64,000 bases of DNA from an uncultured Candidatus Saccharibacteria bacterium (GCA_964637575.1 CAZWVU010000002.1:18824-82823); one strand, 5' to 3'; numbered from the stretch's first letter, positions 16,443 to 55,255 are shown. Numbers and translations are program-made. The notes: generated by a model not told the origin, from the sequence alone.

Positions 16443-16564
16443 GTTGGTTTTGTGTCGGTTGCGCTTTTGACCAGCTCCTCCTTCTCCTCGGCAGGACGTC
16501 GGGCTACAATCCTGCCTGTGGGAAAGAGGAGCTGGCCTTAACTTAACCCTTTCACAAAACCAAC
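16443..16564 (+). repeat. structured repeat family 1, copy 1 (core 16471-16535), nested in a 12-bp outer inverted repeat
   Basis: GTTGGTTTTGTG...CCAGCTCCTC-CTTCTCCTCGGCAGGACGTCGGGCTACAATCCTGCCTGTGGGAAAGA-GAGGAGCTGG...CACAAAACCAAC; begins 1 nt after secY stop. Confidence 0.8.
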
Positions 16565-16585
16565 CGTGTTTGATTAGTTTTTATG

Positions 16586-16626
16586 AAAATCAAAACACTC
16601 CGATTTTGTCGGAGTGTTTTGATTTT
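16586..16626. terminator. 18-bp perfect-stem hairpin, bidirectional terminator between secY(+) and a minus-strand small gene
   Basis: AAAATCAAAACACTCCGA-ttttg-TCGGAGTGTTTTGATTTT; A/T runs on both sides. Confidence 0.7.
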
Positions 16627-16790
16627 CAGATTTCCAGCTTTTTGCGGGTGACAAGCTGGCCATCGTTCAATTGGACAATCAACTCGTAACCCGCGTCCTT
16701 AAATTCTACGCACGTGATGTACAACTCCAGGGCTTTCTTGATGTCCTCTGCGTGGCTCTTGCTCCCCATAAGCTTTTGGAGTTTTTGCAT
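16626..16790 (-). CDS. hypothetical small protein (54 aa) antisense-inserted between secY and adk
   Basis: MQKLQKLMGSKSHAEDIKKALELYITCVEFKDAGYELIVQLNDGQLVTRKKLEI; start chosen at internal ATG preceded by GGAGGAAA RBS (ORF track gives longer 16626..16883 version). Confidence 0.4.
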   Translation of the reverse strand: MQKLQKLMGSKSHAEDIKKALELYITCVEFKDAGYELIVQLNDGQLVTRKKLEI

Positions 16791-16957
16791 TTTCCTCCAC
16801 GCTGGTTCTGCAAAATCCAACTCGATCCTGTGGCAGTTTGACCTTGGGCGTGGCGTGCGTGCGCGGTCGGTTTCCATATGCATCCCTTCTTGAGAACTGC
16901 TGATACATTATCATAATGTTCACAGGAGTCAAATTACTGAAGTTTTTATCAGTTGTG

Positions 16958-16966
16958 TGCTAGAAT
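16958..16966 (+). promoter_or_regulatory. extended -10 promoter (TGcTAGAAT) 7 nt upstream of adk ATG; candidate leaderless transcript
   Basis: tgtgcTAGAATttttgttATG; no SD between -10 and start codon. Confidence 0.45.
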
Positions 16967-16973
16967 TTTTGTT

Positions 16974-17666
16974 ATGGCGAAAAAAGCGGTGATTATTTAC
17001 GGTCCGCCGGGGGCGGGGAAGGGGACGCAGGCGAATCTATTGGCCTGGACGAAAGGGTTCGTTCATTTTGATACGGGAAAATTCCTGGATATTCTGGTGC
17101 ACGACAAAGATAAACAAAGCGATCCAGCGATCGCTGAAGCGCGGCGGCAGATGGATTCCGGCGAATTGGTGACCCCGGAATTCGTGCTGAAGATCACCGC
17201 GGAGGAGGCAAAGAAAATTGGCGAATCCAATTTCAGCATCGTCTTCAGCGGTTCACCACGGACAATGTTTGAAGCGTGGGGCGACGATAACAATAAAGGC
17301 CTGATCGCGGTACTGGAAGAAACCTACGGCAAAGAAAATATCTATCCTGCACATCTGGTGATCGATCCAAAAAAAGCGATTAAGCGCAACGCGAACCGAA
17401 AGATCTGCTCGATCTGCTACACGGCAATCCTGTACAATGAAGAAAAAGGACACCTCCATACGACCTGCCCGCTCTGCGGCGGCGCGCTCCGGACCCGCAG
17501 CGTTGATAATCCGGCCGTGTTTGAGACACGCATTAAGGAATATGAAGAGCGTACCGCGCCAATTCTGGCCGAGCTCAAAAAACATGGCTACAAGGTGTAT
17601 GAAGTGGACGGCAATCCATTGCCGTTTGACGTTTTTGCCGATTTGAAACAAAAGCTGGGTTTGTAA
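16974..17666 (+). CDS. adk: adenylate kinase (Zn-binding lid, CxxC...CxxC)
   Basis: MAKKAVIIYGPPGAGKGTQ P-loop; lid CSICYTAIL...CPLCGG; start at 16974 rather than 16953. Confidence 0.92.
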   Translation: MAKKAVIIYGPPGAGKGTQANLLAWTKGFVHFDTGKFLDILVHDKDKQSDPAIAEARRQMDSGELVTPEFVLKITAEEAKKIGESNFSIVFSGSPRTMFEAWGDDNNKGLIAVLEETYGKENIYPAHLVIDPKKAIKRNANRKICSICYTAILYNEEKGHLHTTCPLCGGALRTRSVDNPAVFETRIKEYEERTAPILAELKKHGYKVYEVDGNPLPFDVFADLKQKLGL

Positions 17667-17680
17667 TACACTTACAAACC

Positions 17681-18436
17681 ATGATTAAACAGCCAGCAGA
17701 TATAGAAAAGATCCGTAAGGCCGGAAAAATTTTGGCGGGCGTCGCTAAGACCATTCTTGCCAATGCCCGGGAAGGCGTCCGCTTGAGCGAGTTGGATGCC
17801 ATGGCTAAGAATCTCATTAAAAAAGCCGGAGGCACGCCGGCATTTTTAGGATATCGGCCTTATGGCGCCGACCGGCCATATCCGGCTTCAATCTGCACCT
17901 CTTTAAATGACGTGGTAGTGCATGGCGTGCCGACGCGTTACGTTTTAAAATCCGGCGATCTTTTGAAATTGGATTTCGGCGTGATCTATGAGGGCTGGTA
18001 TGCCGATGCGGCCTGGACAATTGGTATTGGTGCGATCAGCGATGAAGCGCAAAAGCTTATCAAGGTCACCGAGCAGGCGCTTTTTGACGGCATTAAGCAG
18101 ATGAAATCCGGCTGTCATCTCGGCGACATCGGCTGGGCGATCAGCAAGACAGTCCATAAATACGGCTTCAATGTAGTGGATGGATTAACCGGCCATGGCG
18201 TCGGTCGGGAACTTCACGAGGATCCGAGCGTATTTAACGAGGGTAAAAAGGGGAGTGGTATTGCGCTGCGGCCAGGCATGGTTCTTGCGATTGAGCCGAT
18301 GGTGAGCGCCGGTTCGCCGCGCATCGTCCAATTGGATGACGAAAGTTACGCCACTGAAGATAAAAGTTTATCCGCGCACTTTGAACACACAGTAGTCATA
18401 ACTGATAAGGGACCGGAGATACTCACGTTGATTTAG
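17681..18436 (+). CDS. map: type I methionine aminopeptidase
   Basis: 251 aa; typical MetAP metal-ligand pattern (D..D..H..E..E) and position after adk. Confidence 0.92.
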   Translation: MIKQPADIEKIRKAGKILAGVAKTILANAREGVRLSELDAMAKNLIKKAGGTPAFLGYRPYGADRPYPASICTSLNDVVVHGVPTRYVLKSGDLLKLDFGVIYEGWYADAAWTIGIGAISDEAQKLIKVTEQALFDGIKQMKSGCHLGDIGWAISKTVHKYGFNVVDGLTGHGVGRELHEDPSVFNEGKKGSGIALRPGMVLAIEPMVSAGSPRIVQLDDESYATEDKSLSAHFEHTVVITDKGPEILTLI

Positions 18437-18545
18437 CCAGCACCGCCCAATGGTGGCTTTCATTTTGCGACACTAGAGCTGCGCGCTGTATGACAAGGCA
18501 GGATTTCCACAGCCCTGTTCTTTATTTATTTTTTAATTTGATATA

Positions 18546-18986
18546 ATGAAAACTATGCCAAACAAATCTAAAAAATTATGGGTCTGGATAGTAGTGGTCG
18601 CAGTTATTCTTATCGCGGTGGGCGCATTTTTGTGGCGGAACGGGTGGAAGCTGCCGACGTGGAGCGCGGGTGGTAATTACCAAGCCATTTTCTTGAGCAA
18701 CGGCCAGGTATACTTTGGTAAGGCGGCGCATCTCCGGGAGCAATATGTTACCCTTACCGACGTCTACTACTTGCAAGTAAATCAGGTTTTACAGCCTGTC
18801 CAGGGTAAGAAAGAGCCCCAGCCGACACAGGCCATCAGCCTGGCGAAGCTTGGCGCCAGCGAAATCCATAAGCCGACTGACGAGATGATGATCAACCGGG
18901 ACCAGATCTTATTCATCGAAACCATGAGCGATGATTCCCAGGTAGTGAAGGCGATCACTTCATATAAAGAAAGCCTGAAGAAATAA
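18546..18986 (+). CDS. hypothetical N-terminally membrane-anchored protein
   Basis: 146 aa; KKLWVWIVVVAVILIAVGAFLW signal-anchor then soluble domain; no family recognised. Confidence 0.55.
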   Translation: MKTMPNKSKKLWVWIVVVAVILIAVGAFLWRNGWKLPTWSAGGNYQAIFLSNGQVYFGKAAHLREQYVTLTDVYYLQVNQVLQPVQGKKEPQPTQAISLAKLGASEIHKPTDEMMINRDQILFIETMSDDSQVVKAITSYKESLKK

Positions 18987-18999
18987 CAGTAAACCAGTA

Positions 19000-19023
19000 A
19001 AACCCGCAAAGTGCGGGTTTTTG
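19000..19023 (+). terminator. rho-independent terminator
   Basis: aacccgcaaagtgcgggtt + TTTTT. Confidence 0.7.
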
Positions 19024-19189
19024 GTTAGGACCGTACACACACGAGACCAGGTGGACGAGCTTTTGCGATAGCCGCTTTAGCTGACGTTGCAAAAGCTCGT
19101 CAATATTTCCCGGGCAGGTTTCCCTGAATACCTGTCGCTAAATATACCTTGTGCGACAGAAGATAGAGTTCGACCGACCACTCCCCTCT

Positions 19190-19217
19190 AATAAAAAACC
19201 ACCGCGTTTGGCGGTGG
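19190..19217 (-). terminator. rho-independent terminator for the minus-strand two-gene operon
   Basis: ccaccgc-gtttg-gcggtgg with T-run on minus strand (AAAAAA on plus at 19192-19198). Confidence 0.65.
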
Positions 19218-19225
19218 CGTTTTGT

Positions 19226-19654
19226 TTACTTAAGCCCCTTTAGAATCTTCTTTGCGGCCTTGTTTTGTTCACGATCGTACTTATTTGCTTCCTTTTGCCG
19301 CCGGCGCTCTTCCTGGCGCCGCTTTTTATTTTCCGCCTCCTCTTCGGCTTTCCGCTTTTTGTCGCATAGGATGTCGTATAACTTTCTCCCGCCGCCGAGC
19401 TGTACAGATTCTCCGTTCCTGTACACCTTCACGTAGTAGTCCTTCACCCACGGTGACATCTCGTACATCCGCAGGAGATCGTCCTCTCGCTCGGTATAGC
19501 CGATAACAAAAGTTATCTTCTGCCCCCTGGTCGTCTTTTCAAGCTCCCAGTCCCCGCTCCTGAGCTGCTTCCATCCCCCAAGGCCGGCCGGTTTCGTCAC
19601 CAGCGCCTCAACCTTACTCGCCAATTTCTGAAGGTTTGTCGACTTCTCAGTCAT
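19226..19654 (-). CDS. hypothetical protein with ~100-aa N-terminal domain and Lys/Arg/Glu-rich C-terminal tail
   Basis: 142 aa; AAGGAGAG RBS; tail DKKRKAEEEAENKKRRQEERRRQKEANKYDREQNKAAKK. Confidence 0.6.
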   Translation of the reverse strand: MTEKSTNLQKLASKVEALVTKPAGLGGWKQLRSGDWELEKTTRGQKITFVIGYTEREDDLLRMYEMSPWVKDYYVKVYRNGESVQLGGGRKLYDILCDKKRKAEEEAENKKRRQEERRRQKEANKYDREQNKAAKKILKGLK

Positions 19655-19679
19655 TGCGCTCTCCTTTCAAAAATGCGGC

Positions 19680-20099
19680 TCAGATCGATGAAAGAATTCT
19701 CTTCAGAGTTTCCAAGAGCGAAAATTCCTTTTGGGGGTTCGGGATCATCTGCTTTTTGATTTTTTCCAGCCGAGGCTGGTCAATTGCCTCAAAGAGCTCC
19801 CCTGCCCGGTACGTAGTTTCAAAGACCAGTGGCCCGGCGCACACGCCATACCGAAGCATCGATTCAGATATGGTGCTCGCGTCGCACACATTGATCCGGT
19901 ATGTGAAGTGCTTTTCTGTTCCGATCCATTTTTCAAATTCCTGCCAGACGGTCACGCCGAAACGCTGTCCGCCGGCGTTGAAAGTGCTCATGAAGCAGAT
20001 GCCAACTCCGCCTCCGAACGTCCACTTCGTGCGCCTTCGCCGCGCAATGATACGGTCAACGATCTGCTTCTGCAGGGCCTCCTCGCATCCGGTCGTCAT
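19680..20099 (-). CDS. hypothetical protein (139 aa), first gene of minus-strand pair divergent from murC
   Basis: AAGGAAG RBS; no family recognised (TFGGGVGICFMSTFNAGG..., HFTY). Confidence 0.6.
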   Translation of the reverse strand: MTTGCEEALQKQIVDRIIARRRRTKWTFGGGVGICFMSTFNAGGQRFGVTVWQEFEKWIGTEKHFTYRINVCDASTISESMLRYGVCAGPLVFETTYRAGELFEAIDQPRLEKIKKQMIPNPQKEFSLLETLKRILSSI

Positions 20100-20137
20100 T
20101 CTTTCTTCCTTAAAGAGCTGGTAGAATAGTAAGCAAT

Positions 20138-21394
20138 ATGAAGCGTCGGGTCAACCAGGTGTATTTCATCGGCATTGGCGGGATCGGGATGTCCGCGCTG
20201 GCGCGGTACTTTTTATCCGAGGGTTGGAAGGTTTCCGGATCCGATATTGCCCGCTCCTCTACCACTGACGAACTCAAAAAAGAAGGCGTGGCGATTTACA
20301 TTGGCAAACAATCTGCAAACAATCTCCGGAGGAGCCATCCGTCGCTGGTGGTCTATAATAATGCGATCCAGAAAGATAATCCGGAGTTTACCGAAGCGAA
20401 AAAACTTGGCGTCGCGCTCCGCTCCTACCCGGAAGTTGTCGGCGAGCTGACCAAGAAGTATAAAACGATCGCGCTTGCCGGTTCACACGGTAAAAGCACC
20501 ACCACGGCCATGACCGCACTTATTTTAATGGAGGCCGGTTATGACCCAACCGTCATCATTGGCACAAAACTCAAAGAACTCGGCGGCAAGAACTTCCGGA
20601 GGGGTCGGCTGGGTTGGCTGGTCCTGGAAGCTGACGAATGGAAGGCGGCATTCCTTAACTACTCTCCTTATGTTGCGACCATCACCAATATCGATAAAGA
20701 GCACCTGGATTTTTATAAGAATTTCGCCAACGTCAAAAAAACTTTTGAGGAATTCAAAGCGCGGTGCGAGAAGGTTGTGGAACGGCCGAACAATCCGAAA
20801 CTGGCCGCCGAGATCCGGCGCATCTTGAAAATCCCCGGCGACCATAACGTTCTGAATGCGCTCAATGCCTACGCAGTGGCCGAATACGTCGGCATTTCGA
20901 AGCCGGTCATCTTAAAAGCGCTTTCAAAATATCAGGGCGCCTGGCGGCGGATGGAATACCGGGGCAAATTGAACATTAAAAATGTGAACCTTGAAATTGA
21001 CGTATTCGATGACTACGCCCACCATCCTTCCGAGGTCAGAGCCACGCTCGCCGCATTCAAACAGAAATGGCCCCGGCATCCGCTGATCTGCATATTTCAG
21101 GCACATCAGGCGCACCGACTCAAAGCGCTCTTTAAAGAGTTCAAGGACGCATTCCGGTCTGCCGATAAGGTCATTCTCTTTCCTACGTATATTGTTGCCG
21201 GCCGGGAACGGGAGTTGGATGCCACAAAGAATTCCGAAACGCTCTCAAACATTATCGGCGCGGACTATCTTCGCAATCCAAAGGATCTAAAAAAAGTAGT
21301 GGCCACGGCGATTGAAAGTTTCGGCAACCGGCCGGCAATTATCGTGATGATGGGCGCCGGGGACATTGTGAACTATACTGAATCATTACTCTAA
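20138..21394 (+). CDS. murC: UDP-N-acetylmuramate--L-alanine ligase
   Basis: YFIGIGGIGMSALA N-terminal Rossmann motif, GSHGKSTTT, Mur ligase middle/C-terminal domains. Confidence 0.93.
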   Translation: MKRRVNQVYFIGIGGIGMSALARYFLSEGWKVSGSDIARSSTTDELKKEGVAIYIGKQSANNLRRSHPSLVVYNNAIQKDNPEFTEAKKLGVALRSYPEVVGELTKKYKTIALAGSHGKSTTTAMTALILMEAGYDPTVIIGTKLKELGGKNFRRGRLGWLVLEADEWKAAFLNYSPYVATITNIDKEHLDFYKNFANVKKTFEEFKARCEKVVERPNNPKLAAEIRRILKIPGDHNVLNALNAYAVAEYVGISKPVILKALSKYQGAWRRMEYRGKLNIKNVNLEIDVFDDYAHHPSEVRATLAAFKQKWPRHPLICIFQAHQAHRLKALFKEFKDAFRSADKVILFPTYIVAGRERELDATKNSETLSNIIGADYLRNPKDLKKVVATAIESFGNRPAIIVMMGAGDIVNYTESLL

Positions 21395-22176: not shown

Positions 22177-22185
22177 TTCGGGCGT

Positions 22186-22212
22186 TGGAATAAAAAACCG
22201 CCAGCAATGGCG
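22186..22212. terminator. bidirectional terminator between convergent genes
   Basis: aaccgccagcaatggcggtt flanked by A-run/T-run. Confidence 0.6.
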
Positions 22213-22213
22213 G

Positions 22214-22674: not shown

Positions 22675-25014
22675 TTAGCCGCGGAGGCGCTTGAGAATAT
22701 CCGCCTCGACTTCCTGGCGGTTGCGGCCATAGATCTGCCGGGACTGCTCTTTTAATTTCGATGCGAGTCCCTCGATAAACCGCGGCGAGCGCAATATCAA
22801 TTTCATGTTAAATGGCCGCGAAGTCTGGCCGTTGATCAGCAACTTCACTAGCGCGTTCAGATTGTCGATATTCACGAGATCATTCTCGGTGAACACCGGC
22901 TCAAACTGTTTGATAAGAAATTTCGCATCGTCGGCGCCCACCCGGAAGACGACCTGTGAGCCGACGTTACCGAAGACCGCGTCGCGGATTTTTTCAGCAA
23001 GTTGGGCGATGAACTGATGCGCCACCACCAGATTGAGCCGGTATTTGCGCGCCTCGGAAAGGATCGTCGCAATCGAATCGGTCGTGAAATTCTGGAACTC
23101 ATCGATGTATAGATTAAAATCCTTGCGCTGTTCCTGGGGGACGTCCACCCGTGACAGCGCGGCAAGCAAAACTTTCCCTACTACTACCATCCCGAGAAGT
23201 CCCGCATTGATATCCCCTATTTTGCCCTTGGAAAGGTTTACCAAAAGAATTTTCCCCTCGTCCATGATAGTCCGGAAATTCAACGAGGAGATAGGTTGGC
23301 CGATAATCGGGCGCATGTAATCGTTGGCGATAAAGTTGTTGAACTTGGAGGTGATGTACGGCGTCATATTGGCGAGCGAAGCGTCACCGCCGGCTTTGGC
23401 TGCCTCCTTGCTCCAAAAGTCGATCACGGTCGGGTTGGTCGCCTTTTCCAGCAAGCGCTTCCGGAATTCTGGATCGGTAAAGATTCGCGGCACCTCCATG
23501 AGCGTGGCGCGTTCGCCGGCATCATCCATTAACAGCAAAAGCGCGTTCCGCATGTACTGCTCAAACATCGGCCCCATGGTTTCGGCCGTAAAAAGTTTAT
23601 TAAAAATGCTTTGCATTTCGTTCACGATGAACGTCTTCTGTTCCGGCCGGGCTGGATCGTATTCCAGCATGTTCAGCCCGAACGGTTTCTCGATGTCTCC
23701 CGGGTCAAACACGATCACATCCTTGAACCGGTCCGCGGGAATATTGCCCAGCACCTCCTCGATGAGCTCTCCATGCGGATCCACTACCGCCGCGCCTTTA
23801 CCGCTTTTAATATCCGAAATAACCATATTGGAAAGCAAGGTGGATTTACCGGTGCCGGTCTGTCCGACTATATACACATGCCTCCGGCGGTCGTCGTCGG
23901 TAATATACACCGGCTTGGTTTCGCCGCGGAATGAGCTCTCTCCTATCAGGGTGCCGCTTGCCGGTAACACCGTCGGCGGCGGGGCTTCATGGGCCTTCAC
24001 CCATTTGATTTTGGGTATTTCCGTGCCGGCGGTGGGAAGATGCCAGATTCCGGCAAGCTCGTCAGCTCCGAGAATCATGGATTGCGCCGGGTCGAACTCC
24101 CGGAATACATACTGAAAGATCAGCTTTTGCGGGTTCTTCGCCTCCACCACCTTGAATTCATTATGGCCGGGTGCGGTGAACTGATTGAAGGAGCCGGTGA
24201 GATTATACAACAATTCTTCCGCGCGGTACGGCGACACAGCTGAGCTCACGAGACGGATATTCACATCAAATAACGGCTTGGAAGCTTTCTGGGTGAGAAG
24301 TTTGGCCGCCTCTTCATCAACGATCACCGGCTCCATGGATTCTCCCGGCTTAGGCTTTTTCGGCGAGAACTGCTTTCCTGCCAGCGCGTCCATCAGCTTC
24401 GCGCCGCGCTTCAGATTATAGATAATCTTCGCGATGTTTTTCCCCGTTGAAGGCTGGGCCGGTTTCGCAGTGATCTGCAACGAGAGTCCTTCACCCGTTT
24501 GCTCCACTTTAGAGAAGTTGTTAAGGATCGGCAGAAAGGTGTCTATGCCCGCCTCGATGCATGACCGCACCGGCAGGGCGTAATGCAGTTTTTGTTTTAA
24601 AAACGCCGCCCGCGACGCTCCTTCCGAATTGAATATGGTGTAGTCCTCGGCCGGCGTTACCTGCGCGTCGTGCCACAATCCCTGGATCTGCCGCGCCGCA
24701 AAATCGAGCGCGGTTTCCGGGACCGCCAGGTAAAAATGAATGTCCTCGCCAACGTTATGCACCGAGACTTCCAGTGAAAAGGGAATTTTCAGATTGGAAA
24801 GCAGGCCAAAAAGCTGGCTTGAAAAATTAATCTCTTCCAGTGGTTTTTGCTCGGCGGCCGGTTTTTGGGAAAGACGGATGGAAAGGAGCTTCAGTTTCAA
24901 GAGATTCGCAAACCGCCGGCGGCTTCGGCTGACCGCAATAACAATACTCGCGACCGCCACCACTATCAACACCGGAACTCCGAATGAAACGGCAAGCGCA
25001 ATGATATTCTGCAT
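22675..25014 (-). CDS. membrane-anchored FtsK/HerA-superfamily ATPase, type IV coupling protein (VirD4/TraG/TraD)-like
   Basis: 779 aa; one N-terminal TM (positive residues after it); Walker A YIVGQTGTGKSTLL; Walker B NLYIDEFQNF; ARKYRLNLVVAHQFIAQL resembles coupling-protein QxxxQL block. Confidence 0.7.
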   Translation of the reverse strand: MQNIIALAVSFGVPVLIVVAVASIVIAVSRSRRRFANLLKLKLLSIRLSQKPAAEQKPLEEINFSSQLFGLLSNLKIPFSLEVSVHNVGEDIHFYLAVPETALDFAARQIQGLWHDAQVTPAEDYTIFNSEGASRAAFLKQKLHYALPVRSCIEAGIDTFLPILNNFSKVEQTGEGLSLQITAKPAQPSTGKNIAKIIYNLKRGAKLMDALAGKQFSPKKPKPGESMEPVIVDEEAAKLLTQKASKPLFDVNIRLVSSAVSPYRAEELLYNLTGSFNQFTAPGHNEFKVVEAKNPQKLIFQYVFREFDPAQSMILGADELAGIWHLPTAGTEIPKIKWVKAHEAPPPTVLPASGTLIGESSFRGETKPVYITDDDRRRHVYIVGQTGTGKSTLLSNMVISDIKSGKGAAVVDPHGELIEEVLGNIPADRFKDVIVFDPGDIEKPFGLNMLEYDPARPEQKTFIVNEMQSIFNKLFTAETMGPMFEQYMRNALLLLMDDAGERATLMEVPRIFTDPEFRKRLLEKATNPTVIDFWSKEAAKAGGDASLANMTPYITSKFNNFIANDYMRPIIGQPISSLNFRTIMDEGKILLVNLSKGKIGDINAGLLGMVVVGKVLLAALSRVDVPQEQRKDFNLYIDEFQNFTTDSIATILSEARKYRLNLVVAHQFIAQLAEKIRDAVFGNVGSQVVFRVGADDAKFLIKQFEPVFTENDLVNIDNLNALVKLLINGQTSRPFNMKLILRSPRFIEGLASKLKEQSRQIYGRNRQEVEADILKRLRG

Positions 25015-25398
25015 TTATTGTAATAACCCTCGCGTTTTCAATTCCGCATAAAGCTTGTCGGTAAGCGCGTCATGAAAGGCGTCCATTTCTATCGGACTCA
25101 TCTTCCGTGCCTCGTCCGCCGCACGCTTGATGCCGTGATGAAGTGCGAGATCCAGAAGTTTTTCTACTTTCATTTTTATCTGGGGAGACTCCTTGGCAAA
25201 GTATCCCGGGAGATGAGAGGCGTCGTCTGACGCGGGAGCGCCCGGCGCGGGAACCGGGGCAGAAGACACGGGAAACTTCTCCTGAATCAGGGTTTTGACC
25301 GCCTGCTTCCCCTTCTCCGCCAATCCCCGCTCTTTGATTTCCAGGGAGAGGTTTTTAATCTCCTGCTCCAGTGTGGAATGCTCGAATGACTGTTTCAT
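25015..25398 (-). CDS. hypothetical protein (127 aa), first gene of ATPase operon
   Basis: MKQSFEHSTLEQEIKNLSLEIKERG...; stop abuts ATPase start; the ORF-track 5' extension to 25824 overlaps the divergent GT39 gene and is discarded. Confidence 0.5.
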   Translation of the reverse strand: MKQSFEHSTLEQEIKNLSLEIKERGLAEKGKQAVKTLIQEKFPVSSAPVPAPGAPASDDASHLPGYFAKESPQIKMKVEKLLDLALHHGIKRAADEARKMSPIEMDAFHDALTDKLYAELKTRGLLQ

Positions 25399-25413
25399 AA
25401 TATACTGTATGCA

Positions 25414-26898
25414 ATGGCTAAAAAATATTTCAGCGGTGTCAATTACTGGCTGCTGATTATCATAATTATAGCAACCTTCCTCCGCTTCTACCAAATAACG
25501 GTTATTCCGCCTGGTTTGTACCCGGATGAAGCAATGAATGGGAATAATGCGCTGGAGGCGTTGAGCACAAGAGATTTCAAGGTTTTTTACCCGGAAAATA
25601 ACGGTCGCGAGGGACTTTTGATCAATATGCAGGCAATCCTGATGGGCGCTTTGCACCGGCTTAACCTGGTCAGCCCCGTGAATCAGCCGTGGGTACTGCG
25701 CCTGCCCAGCGCCTTTTTCGGCGTGCTTACTATAGTGGGCCTCTATTTTCTGACGCGGGAACTTTCCGGAAGTAAAAAACTGGCGCTGTTCGCCGCGTTT
25801 CTTATGGCGACGGGATTCTGGCATATTAATTTTTCCCGCATCGGCTTCCGGGCGATCCTCTCGCCGTTTTTCCTTGTCTGGACGGTGTATCTCTTGTTGC
25901 TTTCATACCAGAAACTTTCCGAAGGCAGGCGAAGACTTGGAGTCGCGCTTCCGCTTCTCGCGGGCGCGCTCTATGGCCTCGGCTTCTATACCTATATTGC
26001 CTACAGGGCGACGCCAATCCTTCTCGCGATCTTCATTCTGGCCTGGCTGAAAAAATTCCGCGGCACCAAAGAAAAATTGCGAGATTTTTGGCATGCGACC
26101 GGTCACTTTCTCTTTGCCGCCATCCTGGTAGCGCTTCCCATCGGCATATACTTCCTTCATCACCCCTCCGACTTCTTCGGACGTAGCAGTGAAATTTCCA
26201 TCTTTAATTCCGCCACCCCGCTTCAGGATCTGGGACTGAACATCCTGAAAACGCTTGGGCAGTTCAATATTTCCGGCGATGGAAATTGGCGGCACAATAT
26301 CGCCGGCCAACCCCTCCTTTTTTGGCCGGTAGGAATTATGTTTCTTGTGGGATTCGCGGTGGCTATTAAAAGATTCCGCTTCCCGGTATGGTGGTTTCTT
26401 ATTGCCGGCCTGCCCGTCGTAATTTCCGACGAAGGGATTCCTCACGCGCTCCGCTCTATTCTCATGGCGCCGGCGGTGTATATGCTTGCCGCAATTGGCG
26501 GACTCTGGCTCTACGAACTGATGCGCGCGAGCAAAATCTTCAGAAGCCCCATGATGCTGATAATGTTTGTTGCCGCCCTTCTCGGCCTGCTGACCCTTGA
26601 GGCGTATGCCAGCTACTTCATTATCTGGGGACACAACAAAGAAGTGCAGGGCGCTTTCGCGCAGAATTACGTGGATATCGCCCGGGATCTCAACGCTATT
26701 CCCCACGCGGTTCCGAAGTACGTCATGGTGCAGGCCGGCGGCGTGGCCGTGCGCGGCATCCCCGTGCCCGCGCAGACCGTAATGTTTCTCACCAATACCT
26801 TCCTCCCCGCCAACCAGCAGGCCAAGAATATTCATTACGTTTTGCCGACTGATTCCATACTCATTCCGCCGCGTTCCTACGTTGCAGTCATCAAATAA
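25414..26898 (+). CDS. GT-C glycosyltransferase, family 39 (PMT/ArnT-like)
   Basis: 494 aa; many TM segments; N-terminal loop ...IPPGLYPDEAMNGNNA... (DE motif) typical of ArnT/PMT. Confidence 0.7.
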   Translation: MAKKYFSGVNYWLLIIIIIATFLRFYQITVIPPGLYPDEAMNGNNALEALSTRDFKVFYPENNGREGLLINMQAILMGALHRLNLVSPVNQPWVLRLPSAFFGVLTIVGLYFLTRELSGSKKLALFAAFLMATGFWHINFSRIGFRAILSPFFLVWTVYLLLLSYQKLSEGRRRLGVALPLLAGALYGLGFYTYIAYRATPILLAIFILAWLKKFRGTKEKLRDFWHATGHFLFAAILVALPIGIYFLHHPSDFFGRSSEISIFNSATPLQDLGLNILKTLGQFNISGDGNWRHNIAGQPLLFWPVGIMFLVGFAVAIKRFRFPVWWFLIAGLPVVISDEGIPHALRSILMAPAVYMLAAIGGLWLYELMRASKIFRSPMMLIMFVAALLGLLTLEAYASYFIIWGHNKEVQGAFAQNYVDIARDLNAIPHAVPKYVMVQAGGVAVRGIPVPAQTVMFLTNTFLPANQQAKNIHYVLPTDSILIPPRSYVAVIK

Positions 26899-28651: not shown

Positions 28652-29080
28652 ATGATTCGAATTGCGAAAGCGAAAGTTTCCGAATCACAGGAAGTCCGGC
28701 TGCTTGAAAAAAGAGTGTGGCGCGAAGAGGTCACGAATAAATATGACATTCCGATGCTTGTCCGTTTTGGCTACGCGTACGTGGCAAAAGATAACGGCAC
28801 AATTATCGGCGCCATATTGGGATTCGCGGCACAAAATCAGGAAGTGTACATTTGCGATCTGGTGATCGATCCGAACTACCGGCGAATGGGCGTCGGCGAG
28901 AAGCTTTATAAAAAGTTTCTGGCGCGCACCAAAGGAAGAAACATCGTTTCATTCATTGACCCGGATAATACCGCATCTATTGCGCTCAACCTGAAGCTTG
29001 GCGCGAAAATTGTCCGCAAAATAAAAAATCCCTACGATCTTGGCAGGGGTTACCAATTATTCGTCAGGTTAAAAAACTAA
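28652..29080 (+). CDS. GNAT family N-acetyltransferase
   Basis: 142 aa; acetyl-CoA motif ...YRRMGVGEKLYKKFL... Confidence 0.75.
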   Translation: MIRIAKAKVSESQEVRLLEKRVWREEVTNKYDIPMLVRFGYAYVAKDNGTIIGAILGFAAQNQEVYICDLVIDPNYRRMGVGEKLYKKFLARTKGRNIVSFIDPDNTASIALNLKLGAKIVRKIKNPYDLGRGYQLFVRLKN

Positions 29081-29106
29081 CCGCCGCTGCCGGCGGTTTT
29101 TATTTA
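29081..29106 (+). terminator. rho-independent terminator
   Basis: ccgccg-ctgc-cggcgg + TTTTTA. Confidence 0.65.
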
Positions 29107-29183
29107 TATGATGGAAAATGCGAGGTTGCGTGTTTTGAGGGAATATCTCGGAGCTTTCTTCTTTTAAAAATAAGAGCGAAGTT

Positions 29184-29243
29184 TTCTGCTTCTTCCCGCA
29201 GACAGGATTGTAGCCCGACGTCCTGTCGAGGAGAAGAACAGAA
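29184..29243 (-). repeat. structured repeat family 1, copy 2 (reverse orientation)
   Basis: reverse complement reads TTCTGTTCTTC-TCCTCGACAGGACGTCGGGCTACAATCCTGTCTGCGGGAAG-AAGCAGAA; between convergent GNAT and ychF genes. Confidence 0.8.
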
Positions 29244-29256
29244 GACGAGCGAATCC

Positions 29257-46409: not shown

Positions 46410-47138
46410 TTACAACTTGTATTCTTTCCGCCAAAGCCACCAGCGGATTTTCACCGTTTCGGCAAGCACCTGCAGATACGCCCTGGAGGATACGTGCGTG
46501 CGGGCATCGTTTACCCAGTGCACCGGCATTTCTTTCACTTCATAGCCAAGCGCCCGGGCGAGCGCCAGCGCTTCGATATCAAAGCCCCACCGGTTGATTT
46601 TTACCAGAGGAAACACGCGCTCGGCGGCCTCTTCCGAAAAACATTTAAAACCGCACTGGCTGTCTTTGATGCCCCGTAACGCCATAAGTTGTATGAAAAT
46701 ATTTCCCGCCCGTCCCATTATGCGCTTCTGGATCGGCTGGGGTGGATTCATTTTCGCGCCCTTCACGTACCGCGATCCGATCACCACTTCGTATCCCTGA
46801 TCGAGATAGGGCATCATTTTATTGAATTCGACGATCGTGGTGGAATTATCCGCGTCCATAAACACCCGCCAGTTGCCCTTGGCGGCGAGCATTCCCTGCC
46901 GCACCACCGCGCCTTTGCCGCGGTTTTCTTTATTATCGATCAGTTTCAGATTTTCAATCAGCGGCCGGAAACGGTTGACAATCTCAGCGGTGGCGTCGGT
47001 CGAGCCGTCGTTCACGACGATAATTTCATAGGAATACTCCTGCTGGGAAAGATGCTTGTCCACGTCGATCAGAGTCAACGGAAGACGCTTGGCTTCGTTA
47101 TAGGCGGGTATTATTACGGAGAGATACGGCTTGGCCAT
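46410..47138 (-). CDS. family 2 glycosyltransferase, polyprenyl-phosphate sugar synthase (DPM1/GtrB-like)
   Basis: 242 aa; LSVIIPAYNEAKRL, VVNDGSTD, DADNS motifs. Confidence 0.8.
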   Translation of the reverse strand: MAKPYLSVIIPAYNEAKRLPLTLIDVDKHLSQQEYSYEIIVVNDGSTDATAEIVNRFRPLIENLKLIDNKENRGKGAVVRQGMLAAKGNWRVFMDADNSTTIVEFNKMMPYLDQGYEVVIGSRYVKGAKMNPPQPIQKRIMGRAGNIFIQLMALRGIKDSQCGFKCFSEEAAERVFPLVKINRWGFDIEALALARALGYEVKEMPVHWVNDARTHVSSRAYLQVLAETVKIRWWLWRKEYKL

Positions 47139-47176
47139 CTATTAAAAGTATAGCATTTGATTCCTTTTCTTTTTTA

Positions 47177-47243
47177 GCCAGTGCCTTCTTCTCCTCGCCA
47201 GGACGTCGGGCTACAATCCTGTCTGCGGGAAGAAGGCACTGGC
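47177..47243 (+). repeat. structured repeat family 1, copy 3
   Basis: GCCAGTGCCTTCTTC-TCCTCGCCAGGACGTCGGGCTACAATCCTGTCTGCGG-GAAGAAGGCACTGGC (15-bp perfect outer stem). Confidence 0.8.
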
Positions 47244-47566
47244 TTCACGACAAGACTATTTTGCAAACGTAATCTTGGGAGGTTACGGGTTGAAGCAGCG
47301 CGGTTGGTATTTAAAAAAGCCCCGGCAGGGTGTTCCGGACACCGCAGGGATTTCCCCGCGCAGCCCAGAACCCCAACCGGAGCGTAATATGTTTTTTACT
47401 ACTTTTAATCGTACCACAAAAAATCCCCTCCGCGGGCTACGAAGCCGCACGGAGGGTGTGAACGAGGTCTTGAAAAACTATCCCGAAGTAAGAGCCGAAA
47501 GCGCTTGTTCAAGGACGACCTTTGTCTCTTACTTCGGTGCGGAAAATATACCTAAATTTTTTATTA

Positions 47567-47608
47567 TTGTCAAGGATTCTTGACAAATAACTGCACGCAA
47601 GCTATATT
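47567..47608 (+). promoter_or_regulatory. near-consensus sigma70 promoter (TTGACA-17-TATATT) overlapped by perfect palindrome TTGTCAAG-GATT-CTTGACAA
   Basis: -35 TTGACA 47580-47585 is the right half of the 8-4-8 palindrome 47567-47586; -10 TATATT 47603-47608. Confidence 0.6.
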
Positions 47609-47614
47609 GTGGAG

Positions 47615-47808
47615 GCACTTTGATCGCTGGCCGCCGGCTTCCCGCCGCTACGGCCGGATACTCTGACTGCGGTCTGACGACCGCGCTCGCGCTAAGCCCC
47701 TCGCCCTCGGCTACGCGCGCTCTACGTTCTACGGGCGTTGCCGCTTCGGGTTGTTGACCCGCTGGCGGTAAAATTTCAAGCCCCGGGTGCGCACCCGGGG
47801 CTTTTTTA
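47615..47808 (+). ncRNA. candidate small non-coding RNA (~190 nt) between promoter and terminator, no credible ORF
   Basis: GC-rich, multiple internal hairpins (gcggtc-tgac-gaccgc etc.), CCGCCGGC near 5' end pairs with GCUGGCGG near 3' end; bounded by promoter above and terminator 47780-47810; only a 48-codon TTG-initiated low-complexity ORF possible. Confidence 0.35.
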
Positions 47809-47810
47809 TT
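47780..47810 (+). terminator. rho-independent terminator
   Basis: gccccgggtgcgcacccggggc + TTTTTTATTT. Confidence 0.75.
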
Positions 47811-48135: not shown

Positions 48136-48156
48136 TGTTTCAGTATAGCAGGGGCG

Positions 48157-50827: not shown

Positions 50828-50836
50828 AAGGGTGGC

Positions 50837-51973
50837 TTATGCCTGCCACAAGGATAATATATCCGAGGCTATTTTGTCAGCTGCCCCGGGTGTGGCGAAA
50901 TCCCCGGCGGCACCCGCCATTTTTTTCCACACCCCGGCGCTGCCGAGAATTTTTTCAATCTGGGTCAGGAAAATGCTCGGAAGGAGGTTTTCCTGCTCGA
51001 TCACGACCGCGGCGCCGGTCTCGGCATAGGCATAGGCGTTGGATTTCTGGTGGTCGGCCGCCGCTTCCGGAAACGGCACGATAATTGACGGCTTACCCTT
51101 GGCCGCTATTTCAAAAATGGCGCCGGCGCCGCCGCGCGACACGATCAGGTCCGCGGCATCCATCGCCCGGCTGACGTCATCCAGGTATTCTGAAAACACG
51201 TAATTTTTCTTGAGAATCGGTGAGAAATTTTTGGTAATAAAATCGTACTGCGCCTTATACTCCCTGAATTTTTCTTTTCCCACGGAATGGATTACCTGAA
51301 ACTTCAGAAGCAGAGATTCAAGATTACCGATGACAAAATCATTCATCCGGTTTGAACCCTGCGAGCCGGCAAGAAACAACACCACCGGCTTCTCCGGATC
51401 AAGGCCGAATGTGCGTTTGGCCTCCTCGCTGGAAACGCGCGTAAGAAATTCCTGGCGAACAGGATTGCCTACAATCACCAGCCGGCCGCCGGGTTTTTTG
51501 AAGTACGGCACCGCCGAACTGAACGCGACATCGATCACCTTCGCGAACCGCGCGGAAATAGAATTGCTCAGCCCCGGAACGGTGTCGGATTCGTGGATGG
51601 CCAGCGGTATGAAATAAAAACGGGATGCCAGCACGATCGAGAGGGCGCCGGGGCCGCCTTTGGAAAACACCACGTCGGGCATGAACCAATATAATTTCCA
51701 AAGACCCTGAAAAAAACCGGCAAAGAATTTGAAAAAATCAACAATGTTCAGCAGGGAAAAATACCGCCGCAACTTGCTGCTGGGGATGTGGGAAATCCGG
51801 ATCTCCTGCGCGGCCAGCATTCCGGCGTAGCTTCCCGGCTGGCCGAAATACCGGAAATCGGCCTGAAAACCGTTCCGAAGCGCCCATTCCCGGAGCTTTG
51901 CCGCAACCGCAAGAATCGGATATATGTGTCCGCCCGTTCCCCCGCCGGTAAATAAAATGCGAAGCTTCTTCAT
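50837..51973 (-). CDS. murG: undecaprenyl-PP-MurNAc-pentapeptide N-acetylglucosamine transferase
   Basis: Start at MKKLRILFTGGGTGGHIYP (GT28 N-terminal G-loop); 5' ORF extension discarded. Confidence 0.9.
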   Translation of the reverse strand: MKKLRILFTGGGTGGHIYPILAVAAKLREWALRNGFQADFRYFGQPGSYAGMLAAQEIRISHIPSSKLRRYFSLLNIVDFFKFFAGFFQGLWKLYWFMPDVVFSKGGPGALSIVLASRFYFIPLAIHESDTVPGLSNSISARFAKVIDVAFSSAVPYFKKPGGRLVIVGNPVRQEFLTRVSSEEAKRTFGLDPEKPVVLFLAGSQGSNRMNDFVIGNLESLLLKFQVIHSVGKEKFREYKAQYDFITKNFSPILKKNYVFSEYLDDVSRAMDAADLIVSRGGAGAIFEIAAKGKPSIIVPFPEAAADHQKSNAYAYAETGAAVVIEQENLLPSIFLTQIEKILGSAGVWKKMAGAAGDFATPGAADKIASDILSLWQA

Positions 51974-52011
51974 AACGGATAATAATGAAATTATAACACA
52001 ACAAAGCCCGA

Positions 52012-52476
52012 CTACGGTCGGGCTTGCATGGTATCGGCGCGCCATACGGTCGCCTCCATGATAACTTTTTTTGATTGCGCGAGCTCTTTGACGAGGACGC
52101 GTGCGCCGATGATGAGCGCGGGGTCCGGCCGGGGAGCAATGGCGCTGATCGCCGGTTCGTATTCCTTCCGTGCGAAAGACTTCCAGCGCTGTTCCGCATA
52201 CACCGCGAAAAAGGCGTAATGCGGTTCACCTTTCAATCCCCAGAATTTCAAGATTCTGTGTCTGCCGAAAAATGCAAACTCCTGGCCGGCGAGCACTCCT
52301 TTGCCGTCTTCGTAAATATCGATATAGCCAAGCCAGTTGGCACGGCCCTCATGTCCTTTTTGAAACGGCAGGTGGCGAAACTGATCCACGCCAATCGCCC
52401 GGAACACGGAATCGCGCCGCGCGGGCGGCCATGTAGAAAAGTCCGGAGGCGTTGTTTTCCAGTCGAACATAGCCAA
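52012..52476 (-). CDS. hypothetical protein (154 aa) inserted between ftsW and murG
   Basis: No family recognised (…LGYIDIYEDGKGVLAGQEFAFFGRHRILKFWGLKGEPHYAFFAVY…). Confidence 0.5.
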   Translation of the reverse strand: MAMFDWKTTPPDFSTWPPARRDSVFRAIGVDQFRHLPFQKGHEGRANWLGYIDIYEDGKGVLAGQEFAFFGRHRILKFWGLKGEPHYAFFAVYAEQRWKSFARKEYEPAISAIAPRPDPALIIGARVLVKELAQSKKVIMEATVWRADTMQARP

Positions 52477-52504
52477 CCTCTTACAAACTGCTTGCTTCAG
52501 TATA

Positions 52505-53587
52505 TCAGGAATATCTGGATATGTTACTAACTATGCCACCGATCGTCATAAACACGGCGAGCGCGGTGCCGCCATAGCTGATGAATGGCAGGGGCACGCC
52601 GGTCAGCGGCAGAATCCCGGAAATGGCCCCGATGTTCACGAACACCTGGAGACTGATAAGCGACCCGTATCCCACCAGAAGCAGTTTCCCGAATTTGTCG
52701 CTGGTTTTCCGTGCTAGCAGGAAAATCCGCATAACGAGGATGCCGAACAGCGTGATGAGCGATATGGATCCGATAAAGCCGAATTCCTCCGCCAGGACCG
52801 CAAAGATGGAATCGCCGATCGGCTCCGGCAACGCGCTGATTTTTGTCGTCGATTGGCCGTATCCCACTCCGGCAATGCCGCCGGCGCCGATCGCATTCAA
52901 TGCCTGATTAAGATGGTATCCGCCCGCAAGCGGATCGGCGTTGGGTTTCAGGAAATTGGTGATCCGCTGCATGCGGTACGGCGTGGCCACGATCAGCGCC
53001 GCGATGATGGCTCCCATCACCGCGCAAAAAATTCCAATATGCCAGAGCCGCGCACCGCTCACAAAATACACGATCATCGCGGACAGGAAGAGAATCACCA
53101 CGGTAGATGTCGCCGGCTGTTTGAGTAAAAGTCCGCATACCAGCAATAAAAGCGCCATCATCGGAACGGTCCCCTGCCAGAAATTATTGGTGCGGCGGCG
53201 CTGGCCGGAAAGCCAGGCGGCGAGATACAGGATCACTGTCAGCTTCGCGAATTCCGCCGGCTGGAAAGTAACCGGTCCGAGTCGCACCCAGCGCTCGGCT
53301 CCGCCCGCCTGGAATCCCAAAGGTGTAAATACCAGCGTAAGGAAGACGATGCTGATCAGGAGCAGCGGCACCGCGAATTTCTGATAGCGGCGGTAATGCA
53401 TTTTGTAGGCAATGAAAAATCCGAGGATGCCGAAACTTAACCCGTAATAAATCTGGTGTTTCAGATAATAAAAACTGTCTCCAAACTTGCTCTCGCCGAG
53501 ATTGGAAGAGGCGCTATTGAGGACGACTAGCCCCAGCAGCACCAAGAATGCCAGGCAGGCCAGTATTACATAATCGGGCTTATGCAT
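52505..53587 (-). CDS. ftsW: SEDS family protein FtsW/RodA
   Basis: 360 aa, ~10 TM, FtsW/RodA conserved periplasmic loop; dcw context with murG. Confidence 0.88.
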   Translation of the reverse strand: MHKPDYVILACLAFLVLLGLVVLNSASSNLGESKFGDSFYYLKHQIYYGLSFGILGFFIAYKMHYRRYQKFAVPLLLISIVFLTLVFTPLGFQAGGAERWVRLGPVTFQPAEFAKLTVILYLAAWLSGQRRRTNNFWQGTVPMMALLLLVCGLLLKQPATSTVVILFLSAMIVYFVSGARLWHIGIFCAVMGAIIAALIVATPYRMQRITNFLKPNADPLAGGYHLNQALNAIGAGGIAGVGYGQSTTKISALPEPIGDSIFAVLAEEFGFIGSISLITLFGILVMRIFLLARKTSDKFGKLLLVGYGSLISLQVFVNIGAISGILPLTGVPLPFISYGGTALAVFMTIGGIVSNISRYS

Positions 53588-53591
53588 TTTC

Positions 53592-55100
53592 CTAACTCTT
53601 TTTCAGAATTTTTCCCGCCATGACGGGCAGAAGCGTTCCTTCCTGTACCGCCGGTTTGCCGTTGACCAGCACATGGGCAACGGAAACCACTCCGGATTTG
53701 ATGGAAATGAGATTGCAGTCAGCGGCGTATCCCTCGGCGATCCGGCCCCGATCCTTCAGGCCGAATATCCGGGCCGGCACGTCGGTGATTTTTTCGATCG
53801 CCTGCGGCAGGGAAAGCGTTTTCGCGCGCAATACGATTTCCAGAAACTTCGGGAATGTTTTCAAAAAACGGTCGTGTTTGATTGCTTTCGCACGCCCCGG
53901 CAAACTGGCGCCGTTGGAAGCGATCAGCACCTGGTCACGTTCCAGATTCTGGGTCAGCACGTCCAGGTTGATATTGCGGTAAAACACCGTGGCGCGGAGA
54001 CCGGTTACTTTCATCACCCGGAGCAGCGCTTCGGCGGCGCTCACCTCCTGCGAGTCGGCGATCTGATGAATCGTCTTGCCAAGCAGGTACTCCCGGCCTG
54101 GCGCCTGGGAAATCCTGATGTCGTCGCCCTTATGCCGGGCCAGATCCTTCAGCAGCCGCGCTCTGGTTTCCGGATTTTCAATATAGGAACCCATGGTTTC
54201 CAGAGTGCCGACCTTCGCCCATGCCGGCAGAAGCGTATAGATAGGAACGACTGTTTCTCCGAACGGATAACAATCGACGTAGATATCGGCTTCCCGTGCC
54301 CGCTGATGGATCAGCTCCAGCGCTTTCCGGTAATCATGTTCGAAACCGATAAGGGGTTTGAAGTGACTGATCAGAGCCTGCACGCCGGTTTCTTCCGCCA
54401 GTTGGATTGTTTCCGCGACGGAAGCCGCCACCCCCTCTTCCTCATTGCGAAGATGCGTCGCGTACACGCCGCCGCGCTTCGCCACCACGGCCGCGAGTTC
54501 TTTCAGTTCCGAATACGGAATCCGACCGCCGTGCGCATACCCAAGCCCGGTGGACAATCCGAACGCTCCCTCTTTCATCGCCTGCTCAACCACGTACTTG
54601 AAACTTTGCAGCTCCGGCATAGTAAGATCGCGCGCGTCCTCCCCAACCATCGCCCGGCGGATCGTGGAATGCCCGATCAGTGTCCCGAAATTCACGCCGA
54701 GCGGCCGCCGGTCCAGCACTTTTAAAAATTCCGCCATAGTATGCCAGTTGATGTTGACCTGGCTGGTATCCGTCCACTTGCGGATCGATTCCAGACTTCC
54801 ATACAAAAGCGGCGCCAGCGACGAGCCGCAATGGCCGCCGAAAATCGTCGTGACCCCCTGCAGCAAAAAATCCTGCTGTTCCGGATCGGTAAACAGCGAA
54901 AGTTGGTGGTCGGAATCGGTATTGACGTCAATAAATCCCGGCGTGAGGTAGAGGCCGAGACCGTCAATCACCACGTCCGCTTTTTTGCCGGGAAATTTCC
55001 CGATCGCGGAAATTTTGCCGTCCGAAATCAAAACATCGGCCGCGTACGGCGTCTTTTTCCCGGTGCCATCCACAACCTTGGCTCCTTTGATAAGGACCAT
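53592..55100 (-). CDS. amidohydrolase-superfamily enzyme, D-aminoacylase (N-acyl-D-amino-acid deacylase)-like
   Basis: 502 aa; MVLIKGAKVVDGTG...GFIDVNTDSDHQ... metal-binding start typical of D-aminoacylases. Confidence 0.7.
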   Translation of the reverse strand: MVLIKGAKVVDGTGKKTPYAADVLISDGKISAIGKFPGKKADVVIDGLGLYLTPGFIDVNTDSDHQLSLFTDPEQQDFLLQGVTTIFGGHCGSSLAPLLYGSLESIRKWTDTSQVNINWHTMAEFLKVLDRRPLGVNFGTLIGHSTIRRAMVGEDARDLTMPELQSFKYVVEQAMKEGAFGLSTGLGYAHGGRIPYSELKELAAVVAKRGGVYATHLRNEEEGVAASVAETIQLAEETGVQALISHFKPLIGFEHDYRKALELIHQRAREADIYVDCYPFGETVVPIYTLLPAWAKVGTLETMGSYIENPETRARLLKDLARHKGDDIRISQAPGREYLLGKTIHQIADSQEVSAAEALLRVMKVTGLRATVFYRNINLDVLTQNLERDQVLIASNGASLPGRAKAIKHDRFLKTFPKFLEIVLRAKTLSLPQAIEKITDVPARIFGLKDRGRIAEGYAADCNLISIKSGVVSVAHVLVNGKPAVQEGTLLPVMAGKILKKS

Positions 55101-55196
55101 CTTACTAAAAGTATATCATACGGCTTGCCTGTCCCGGCCGCCGCCAACCTCTCGTCGGACTCGGACATCCGGGAATTTCCTCGGGCTGACTCGCCC

Positions 55197-55255
55197 CTGC
55201 CTCCTTCTCCTCGCCAGGACGTCGGGCTACAATCCTGCCTGCGGGAAGGAGGCAG
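55197..55255 (+). repeat. structured repeat family 1, copy 4
   Basis: CTGCCTCCTTC-TCCTCGCCAGGACGTCGGGCTACAATCCTGCCTGCGG-GAAGGAGGCAG. Confidence 0.8.

Follow-up and report, generated by a model that had tools for sequence, protein, structure and literature searches.

The 64,000-nucleotide stretch of DNA analysed here (the window; GCA_964637575.1 CAZWVU010000002.1:18824-82823, from an uncultured Candidatus Saccharibacteria bacterium) carries a family of intergenic hairpins whose apical 43 nucleotides (nt) are invariant in sequence and whose basal stem is free in sequence but remains paired. The reading we favour, with roughly even confidence, is that of a lineage-restricted, non-autonomous and proliferating palindromic element, comparable to repetitive extragenic palindromic (REP) sequences and REPINs or to hairpin-type miniature inverted-repeat transposable elements (MITEs), and of a different architecture. 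Four lines of evidence point to it: the presence or absence of copies at orthologous sites, a narrow distribution, the identity of copies across genomes, and an orientation that is tied to terminators. A preliminary description of the same DNA had taken the copies for independent small RNAs and had set selection on structure against transposition. The repeat family that it reported is genuine, its covariation stands and it belongs to no Rfam family, whereas the small RNAs and the contrast with transposition are not supported.

The preliminary description was built on a 23-nt core (CAGGACGTCGGGCTACAATCCTG), said to be identical in four copies. Exact matching confirms this, with four occurrences in the window, at 16492 (+), 29203 (-), 47199 (+) and 55215 (+), no extra match at up to three mismatches, and none in 100 shuffled sequences (none expected by chance). 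Throughout, F denotes the orientation in which that core was first read and R the opposite strand. The hairpins and their conserved blocks are located as follows.

16471..16535, + strand (F): hairpin of copy 1, with arms at 16471-16496 and 16510-16535; covariance-model score 89 bits
16482-16524, + strand: conserved block of copy 1
29181..29246, - strand (F on the - strand): hairpin of copy 2, with its conserved block at 29193-29235
47176..47244, + strand (F): hairpin of copy 3, with its conserved block at 47189-47231 and a perfect 17-bp outer stem
55193..55259, + strand (F): hairpin of copy 4, with its conserved block at 55205-55247

A covariance model made from the four window copies and one database match recovers three additional copies, seven in all, and detects neither a fifth copy nor a decayed relic within the window, even with filters off. 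One of the additional copies comes from the window organism, 1.4 kb leftward of the window, on Logan contigs from two samples (L008 and L009). The other two are found on contig CAYSNI010000067 (L001/L020) of a related metagenome-assembled genome (MAG; GCA_964432465.1), at L020:11389-11458 and L020:12902. With four copies in the window and one in the 4.1 kb leftward, the density is about one per 15 kb; the MAG has two in 21 kb. The additional copies carry single loop transitions (CGTTGGG.., ..GGGTTAC..), and the 43-nt block is identical, or one loop base apart, across both genomes.

Two further loci of the window organism were considered. About 8.5 kb to the right of the window end, a contig (L005 14830-14926) terminates after a tRNA gene in ...ACAAGCGAGGGGCGGGCTGCGAGAAATTTCCTGCAGGAAATTTACTTGTAGCC; this end carries the flank box AAGCGAGG and stops at TTGTAGCC, the initial bases of the R-strand loop, and it may be a diverged copy truncated by the contig end. 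A supposed relic upstream of the tuf promoter of the window (about 5029-5070, GGGAGCA..TGCTCCC-GAGGAG) was rejected, as it obtained no covariance-model score with filters off. The repeat also interrupts de Bruijn-graph short-read assemblies of the organism: positions 1-26 of L021, the short-read Logan contig of the GT2 gene (window 47188-47213), end in the middle of the copy 3 loop.

The family has an extremely narrow distribution. Among 185,579 species-representative genomes, the loop 19-mer has one true copy (on the MAG contig) and one chance match, and in metagenome contigs it has no true copy. Viral contigs contain no match to any of three patterns, including one in which the loop was left free, and copy 3 has no BLAST match among phage or plasmid records. 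In L003 (422-443) and L004 (238-259), 22 nt of the core occur in a lipoprotein-like open reading frame (ORF; ...NRTSGYNPLAK...); since the flanks of the element are missing and the ORF is unrelated, we judged this match to be chance. At gathering thresholds, Rfam 15 has no match in the whole window or in L001, L003 and L004, and when copy 3 was scanned permissively, the sole matches were generic miRNA-precursor hairpins whose scores (12-26 bits) fall short of thresholds of 40-200. In the 64 kb even ribosomal-protein leaders ahead of the S10/spc operons are missing at gathering score, and the window has no tRNA gene.

The two MAG copies stand directly after fusA and directly before the tuf promoter. 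The corresponding spacers (fusA/X and X/tuf, X being the membrane-protein gene that lies between) are thus filled in the MAG, and they are empty in the window and in four relatives (L014, L015, L016 and L017), whose FusA proteins match that of L020, the query, at 82-92% identity and in which no copy occurs in the 15-22 kb of synteny around fusA. At these sites an ordinary terminator and promoter take the place of the element in the window and in L014. The FusA proteins of the window genome and the MAG are 92% identical, the membrane protein adjoining fusA is only 34% identical, and at fourfold-degenerate positions fusA and tuf agree in 42-43% of cases, close to saturation. Even so, copy 3 and the MAG copy upstream of tuf share 53 nt without a difference, more than any other pair; among the window copies the longest such stretch is 37 nt. 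Presence and absence, taken together with this identity across genomes, indicate that the family is gained and lost faster than the genomes diverge, and either strong constraint acts on its centre or the centre has moved horizontally. This is the behaviour of a proliferating element, and structural selection can therefore no longer be opposed to transposition as it was in the preliminary description. A search for relatives through the adjoining membrane protein recovered only that protein itself.

The two MAG copies are mutually inverted (L020 11398-11468 and 12893-12963; 71 nt, 90% complementary) and bracket the fast-evolving membrane-protein gene in a layout like that of a composite transposon. 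In the window and L014 the gene occupies the same place with no element beside it.

The invariant block is longer than first described, comprising 43 rather than 23 nt (TTCTCCTCG-N-CAGGACGTCGGGCTACAATCCTG-Y-CTG-Y-GGGAA), of which 40 positions are invariant. Its flanks TTCTCCTCG and CTGYGGGAA are present in all four window copies; the final G of the flank originally given as CTGYGGGAAG is A in copy 1. The whole unit measures 65-90 nt and the hairpin 60-70 nt. The apical part consists of a 5-bp stem, a 13-nt loop and an asymmetric internal loop, and below it come 10-17 bp in which pairing is retained and the sequence is free. The pair beside the inner stem does switch from G-C in copy 1 to A-T in copy 2, as noted before; the same positions are C/T in copy 3 and C/C in copy 4 (both unpaired), and C-G in the L008 copy. 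Two statements about the outer stems need correction. They are not completely different, as all have CCTYC/GRAGG beside the core and those of copies 1, 3 and 4 have 7-8 of 11 further positions in common, a likeness that decays outward. Nor are they all perfectly complementary: copy 3 alone is free of irregularities, a C×A mismatch occurring in each of copies 1 and 4 and, together with a 1-nt bulge, in copy 2.

The recurring peptide reported for the element, SPRQDVGLQSCL(R/W)E, is indeed encoded at all four window copies. It is a trivial outcome of the repeated DNA, and the element generates false ORFs; when its five open translations were compared with a database of 5.8 billion proteins, the 25 candidates that shared words gave no scoring match. 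The loop 8-mer GTAGCCCG, seen also in a terminator loop (47433-47440), was dropped, one extra match being the chance expectation.

Compensatory change in the outer stem is real. Over the seven copies, 10 pairs have changed on both sides (5.3±1.5 in shuffles), as have 20 individual cells (7.3±2.3), a count that none of 500 shuffles reached, and when the partner columns are slid, the paired share drops from 90% to 41-56%. In the outer helix 9-10 pairs co-vary, a value attained by 0-3 of 500 shuffles. The 12 inner pairs are constant in all seven copies, and the inner helix is evidentially silent on covariation because they never vary. Such covariation is equally expected if only foldable copies replicate, or if template switching corrects one arm from the other; a host-level RNA function is not needed for it. 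In this regard, the 3' arm of L020:11389-11458 contains ATAAGC, complementary to the conserved 5' flank GCTCAT of the family, which is unpaired in the sister copy. This 6-nt block change appears better explained by templated copying of an arm than by point mutations.

The two strands are not equivalent. The R strand is the more stable in 7/7 copies, by 1.9-14.4 kcal/mol, and adopts one architecture throughout, whereas the minimum-energy folds of F vary between copies. From the base upward, the R fold comprises the basal helix, a bulged A, a CC/GG step and a small internal loop, followed by a helix of 6-8 bp with a U·G pair, a bulged U, a GU/AC step and the hexaloop AGCCCG. All five C×A mismatches of the basal helix on F are G·U pairs on R, and paired cells amount to 94.6% on R against 89.8% on F. 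Fold z-scores range from -5.9 to -8.1. These asymmetries (p about 0.02-0.03, from seven partly related copies) are suggestive rather than conclusive, and RNA and single-stranded DNA would account for them alike. Inspection for a K-turn, a pseudoknot or loop-loop pairing, a CsrA-type GGA loop, and mimicry of the Shine-Dalgarno or anti-Shine-Dalgarno sequence revealed no consistent register.

All four window copies are intergenic, as previously stated. Copy 1 lies between secY and adk; copy 2 between the convergent GNAT and ychF genes; copy 3 between a GT2 gene and a non-coding region, upstream of a GT2-greA-aminoacyl-tRNA synthetase operon; and copy 4, inside the cell-wall (dcw) gene cluster, between a gene for a 502-residue amidohydrolase-like protein and one for a small zinc-ribbon (DZR) protein. 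Three further features accompany copies 1 and 2.

16443-16454 and 16553-16564: perfect 12-bp inverted repeat (GTTGGTTTTGTG / CACAAAACCAAC) around copy 1, forming a second tier
16584..16628: perfect palindrome with 20-bp arms and A and T runs beside it, of the bidirectional terminator type, 49 nt from copy 1
29169..29253: imperfect direct repeat (AATAAGAGCGAA / AAGACGAGCGAA) around copy 2

The long-range inverted repeat enclosing copy 1, already remarked upon, is real, and the entire 122 nt of 16443..16564 can be folded as a single long quasi-palindrome.

Two kinds of placement are observed. Copies 1, 2 and L020:11389 stand in F orientation between a stop codon (of secY, ychF and fusA, respectively) and the terminator of that gene; the hairpin of copy 1 starts 29 nt past the secY stop codon (16440-16442), and copy 2 starts 11 nt past that of ychF, with shared terminators downstream (29079-29098 and 29132-29154). 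Copies 3, 4, L008 and L020:12902 stand in R orientation between a terminator and the next promoter. Read along the - strand, copy 3 follows a hairpin with a T run by about 65 nt and precedes the apparently leaderless GT2 gene, which starts at 47138, by 38 nt; copy 4 has the DZR gene's - strand terminator (55429-55409) on one side and, on the other, the TATACT-N9-ATG start of the 502-residue gene (55100); and the L020:12902 copy ends 11 nt ahead of the tuf -35 box. The orientation was earlier called inconsistent, which holds relative to genes but not relative to terminator hairpins: in 7/7 copies the R orientation is found about 30-70 nt downstream of a terminator-type hairpin with a T run on the same strand. 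A single rule can cover all seven because the first three terminators are palindromes flanked by A and T. The earlier conclusion that the element is not a cis leader is supported.

The genes downstream of the element at 47138 (-), 55100 (-) and L008 2754 (+) look leaderless, with a -10 box (TATACT or TGCTATAAT) only 6-9 nt ahead of the ATG.

No T run or U tract adjoins the stem on either strand in any copy, and separate canonical terminators are present nearby. As no U tract directly follows the hairpin, the element is not a canonical intrinsic terminator. On the R strand, four or five copies are flanked by the boxes GCGAG (before) and GAGCG (after). Flanking direct repeats are present at four of the seven copies, including copy 2 and those of L008 and L020, and absent from three. 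Since the boxes are the same at different sites, they would be a part of the element or a strict target rather than ordinary target-site duplications.

A hairpin read by a protein remains the best functional picture that we can infer. The element would be read on its R strand as a folded single strand, either single-stranded DNA during replication or RNA, by a trans-acting protein that recognises the invariant loop and the internal loop; an enzyme of the HUH/Y1 type (RAYT or IS200/IS605-like) is the obvious candidate. New copies would settle beside terminator hairpins, among the few tolerated sites of a compact genome. Covariation would then arise because only foldable copies are copied, or through intra-strand template switching that corrects one arm from the other, and copies might secondarily serve as stable hairpins in 3' untranslated regions (UTRs) or between operons. 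The trans-acting enzyme, the single-stranded intermediate and the targeting of terminators are putative parts of this scheme.

Several observations weigh against a proliferating element. No target-site duplication of variable sequence accompanies the copies, their flank boxes being alike at different sites, and the terminal arms vary between copies, unlike the inverted repeats of MITEs. A Pfam scan of about 40 window ORFs revealed no transposase, RAYT or recombinase, and neither did the precomputed annotations of roughly 170 kb of related loci. The lack of decayed copies in 64 kb would also be consistent with purifying selection at the level of the host, and an invariant 13-nt loop is unusual for REP sequences or MITEs and typical of functional RNAs. 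The strand and orientation tests are weak and post hoc, with seven copies of which several share ancestry. Mobility is deduced from a comparison between genera, with no pair of filled and empty sites within one species.

In an alternative that we consider possible but distinctly less probable, a very stable cis-acting RNA hairpin serves the host by protecting mRNA 3' ends or by keeping read-through out of neighbouring transcription units. Its invariant loop would be recognised by an RNA-binding protein of the host, and copies duplicated occasionally would be maintained by host selection. Placement is in keeping with this, as three copies lie 0-29 nt past the stop codons of secY, ychF and fusA and ahead of their terminators, and hence in 3' UTRs, and the other four lie between a terminator and the next promoter, in the path of read-through. 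So are the perfectly conserved core without decayed copies, the strongly negative z-scores and the mismatches that are all G·U on one strand. The transcribed strand, however, would be F where a copy lies in a 3' UTR and R where it lies between terminator and promoter, so that one sequence-specific RNA reader cannot serve all copies. At secY and fusA, moreover, R, the strand that folds better, is antisense to every gene nearby; copies are lacking at the orthologous sites of relatives with the same genes; and the U tract directly after the hairpin is missing.

Bacterial hammerhead, twister and similar motifs combine conserved loops with a co-varying closing helix and occur in multiple intergenic copies in both orientations. 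By analogy with that pattern, the repeat might carry an undescribed catalytic or protein-binding RNA module of CPR (Candidate Phyla Radiation) bacteria, for example a small self-cleaving ribozyme or a protein sponge, riding on a mobile repeat; the internal loop and the 13-nt apical loop would then form the active core, and the variable basal helix the P1 stem. One strand consistently folds better, and the lack of an Rfam match means that the module would be new. We regard this as improbable: the inner helix is invariant and hence without covariation, the favoured strand is antisense to the sole nearby transcription in 2/7 copies, inspection gave no pseudoknot or loop-loop complementarity, and the family is known from two genomes only.

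The preference of the preliminary description, that the copies are independent genes for trans-acting small RNAs, fares worse still and is very unlikely. The copies are intergenic, structured and conserved, and a weak T-rich stretch follows the hairpin by 8-17 nt on the F strand in five of them. At no copy, however, did we find both a promoter and a terminator of its own; there is no promoter-like site upstream on either strand and no hairpin with a T run directly after it. Three copies abut stop codons and one ends just before a -35 box, and the paralogues differ in stem bases only, which leaves no variable "seed" region.

That the 43-nt core was inserted into the loops of pre-existing, unrelated terminator hairpins, which would make the outer stems host sequence and the covariation illusory, is largely refuted: the outer stems do vary by site and copy 1 does lie inside an additional 12-bp inverted repeat, but the stems show a decaying likeness (CCTYC/GRAGG in all, CCAG..CTGG in copies 1 and 3, TGCCTYC in copies 3 and 4), one arm is uniformly pyrimidine-rich, and stems of 10-17 bp without an adjoining T run are unlike the true terminators of this genome that stand beside each copy.

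The proliferating palindromic element thus remains the favoured reading. The FusA relatives of both the window genome and the L020 genome are MAGs of Patescibacteria/CPR, which agrees with the small, streamlined appearance noted earlier. Genomes of this group measure about 1 Mb and are generally said to contain few repeats and little mobile DNA. One copy per ~15 kb would be a notable exception, all the more as copies stand directly against secY, fusA, tuf, ychF and the dcw cluster. The reader could be an unrecognised HUH-type enzyme or RNA-binding factor, and few such systems are known in the lineage. As its copies are nearly identical in two genomes whose synonymous sites are saturated, the element may also serve to trace horizontal exchange among CPR lineages that are uncultured.

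Other parts of the window and of the related loci also deserve mention. Between 31753 and 37363, genes for a thiolase, a FadB-like enoyl-CoA hydratase/3-hydroxyacyl-CoA dehydrogenase and a 709-residue acyl-CoA dehydrogenase are clustered in the most GC-rich part of the window (0.57-0.60 compared with about 0.53); a beta-oxidation block of this kind would not be expected of a CPR genome, and it may stem from horizontal transfer. On the - strand, 22675-25014 encodes a 779-residue VirD4/TraG-like type IV coupling ATPase, after which two ORFs (25015-25824 and 25903-26835) have no Pfam match. Back-to-back near-consensus promoters (TTGACA-17-TATATT) occupy both strands of 47545-47608, with - strand hairpins plus T runs at about 47313-47345 and 47428-47444 and a strong + strand terminator at about 47781-47810. 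The layout of 47300-47810 implies two short unannotated transcripts, one of about 120-230 nt and one of about 195 nt, neither of which contains a convincing ORF or matches an Rfam family. In L014, a 33-nt inverted repeat (88% complementary; 19589-19855) surrounds a 69-residue ORF between rpsH and rplF and may be a different small insertion element.

Of the known systems, the REP, BIME and REPIN elements of Proteobacteria, which are mobilised by RAYT (HUH Y1) transposases whose genes lie in the same genome, often with the repeat on either side, resemble the present family. They too are short, repeated, imperfect extragenic palindromes found near gene ends and terminators in either orientation, with a hairpin kept across copies, presumably read as a single strand, and with mismatches that mark the strand. 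Here all seven copies are intergenic hairpins of this kind, at the density given above. REP sequences, however, measure 20-40 nt and have conserved arms and a GTAG-type tetranucleotide at the foot, whereas here the apex is conserved and the foot variable, and GTAG occurs solely inside the apical loop of the R strand. The hosts differ as well, Proteobacteria in the one case and CPR/Patescibacteria in the other, and no RAYT gene was seen among the window ORFs scanned or the annotations of the related loci (for the window organism itself, 64 kb plus about 13 kb of DNA was examined).

Bacterial MITEs (Correia/NEMIS, ERIC, RUP, BOX and Nezha) are likewise small, non-coding, intergenic and able to form long hairpins; they are gained and lost between related genomes, as observed here, and can be co-opted as RNA structures. 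They differ in having terminal inverted repeats that are conserved between copies, while in the present element the outermost 6-10 bp vary and conservation rises toward the centre, and in having site-specific target-site duplications in place of the same GCGAG/GAGCG box or none. The ends of IS200/IS605 elements and their PATE derivatives are comparable in that imperfect hairpins are recognised on one strand, adjoining short sequences are constant, in the manner of cleavage and target sites, and insertion causes no duplication. They carry two distinct subterminal hairpins, in contrast to the single hairpin here, and neither TnpA nor TnpB was seen.

The attC sites of integrons are comparable as recombination sites in the form of single-strand hairpins, with structure counting for more than sequence and the active strand identified by its unpaired bases. 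In attC the boxes at the base (R''/L'' and L'/R') are conserved and the centre is variable, the reverse of the present arrangement, and the cassettes form arrays next to intI, whereas our copies are scattered among housekeeping genes without integron context. Quasipalindrome template-switch mutagenesis (the Ripley model) likewise yields multi-base "compensatory" arm changes in one event, as at L020:11389-11458. It differs in being a mutational mechanism and not a family of elements, and it would act atop whatever spreads the repeat.

A literature search for REP or MITE elements of CPR/Patescibacteria returned nothing relevant. The architecture of the hairpin is the inverse of that of REP sequences and MITEs, with an invariant apex and a base that is free but paired, which suggests that a reader protein contacts both loops, apical and internal, of a strand folded on itself. 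In a phylum for which we found no earlier descriptions, the element is best described as an intergenic palindromic repeat with a new architecture.

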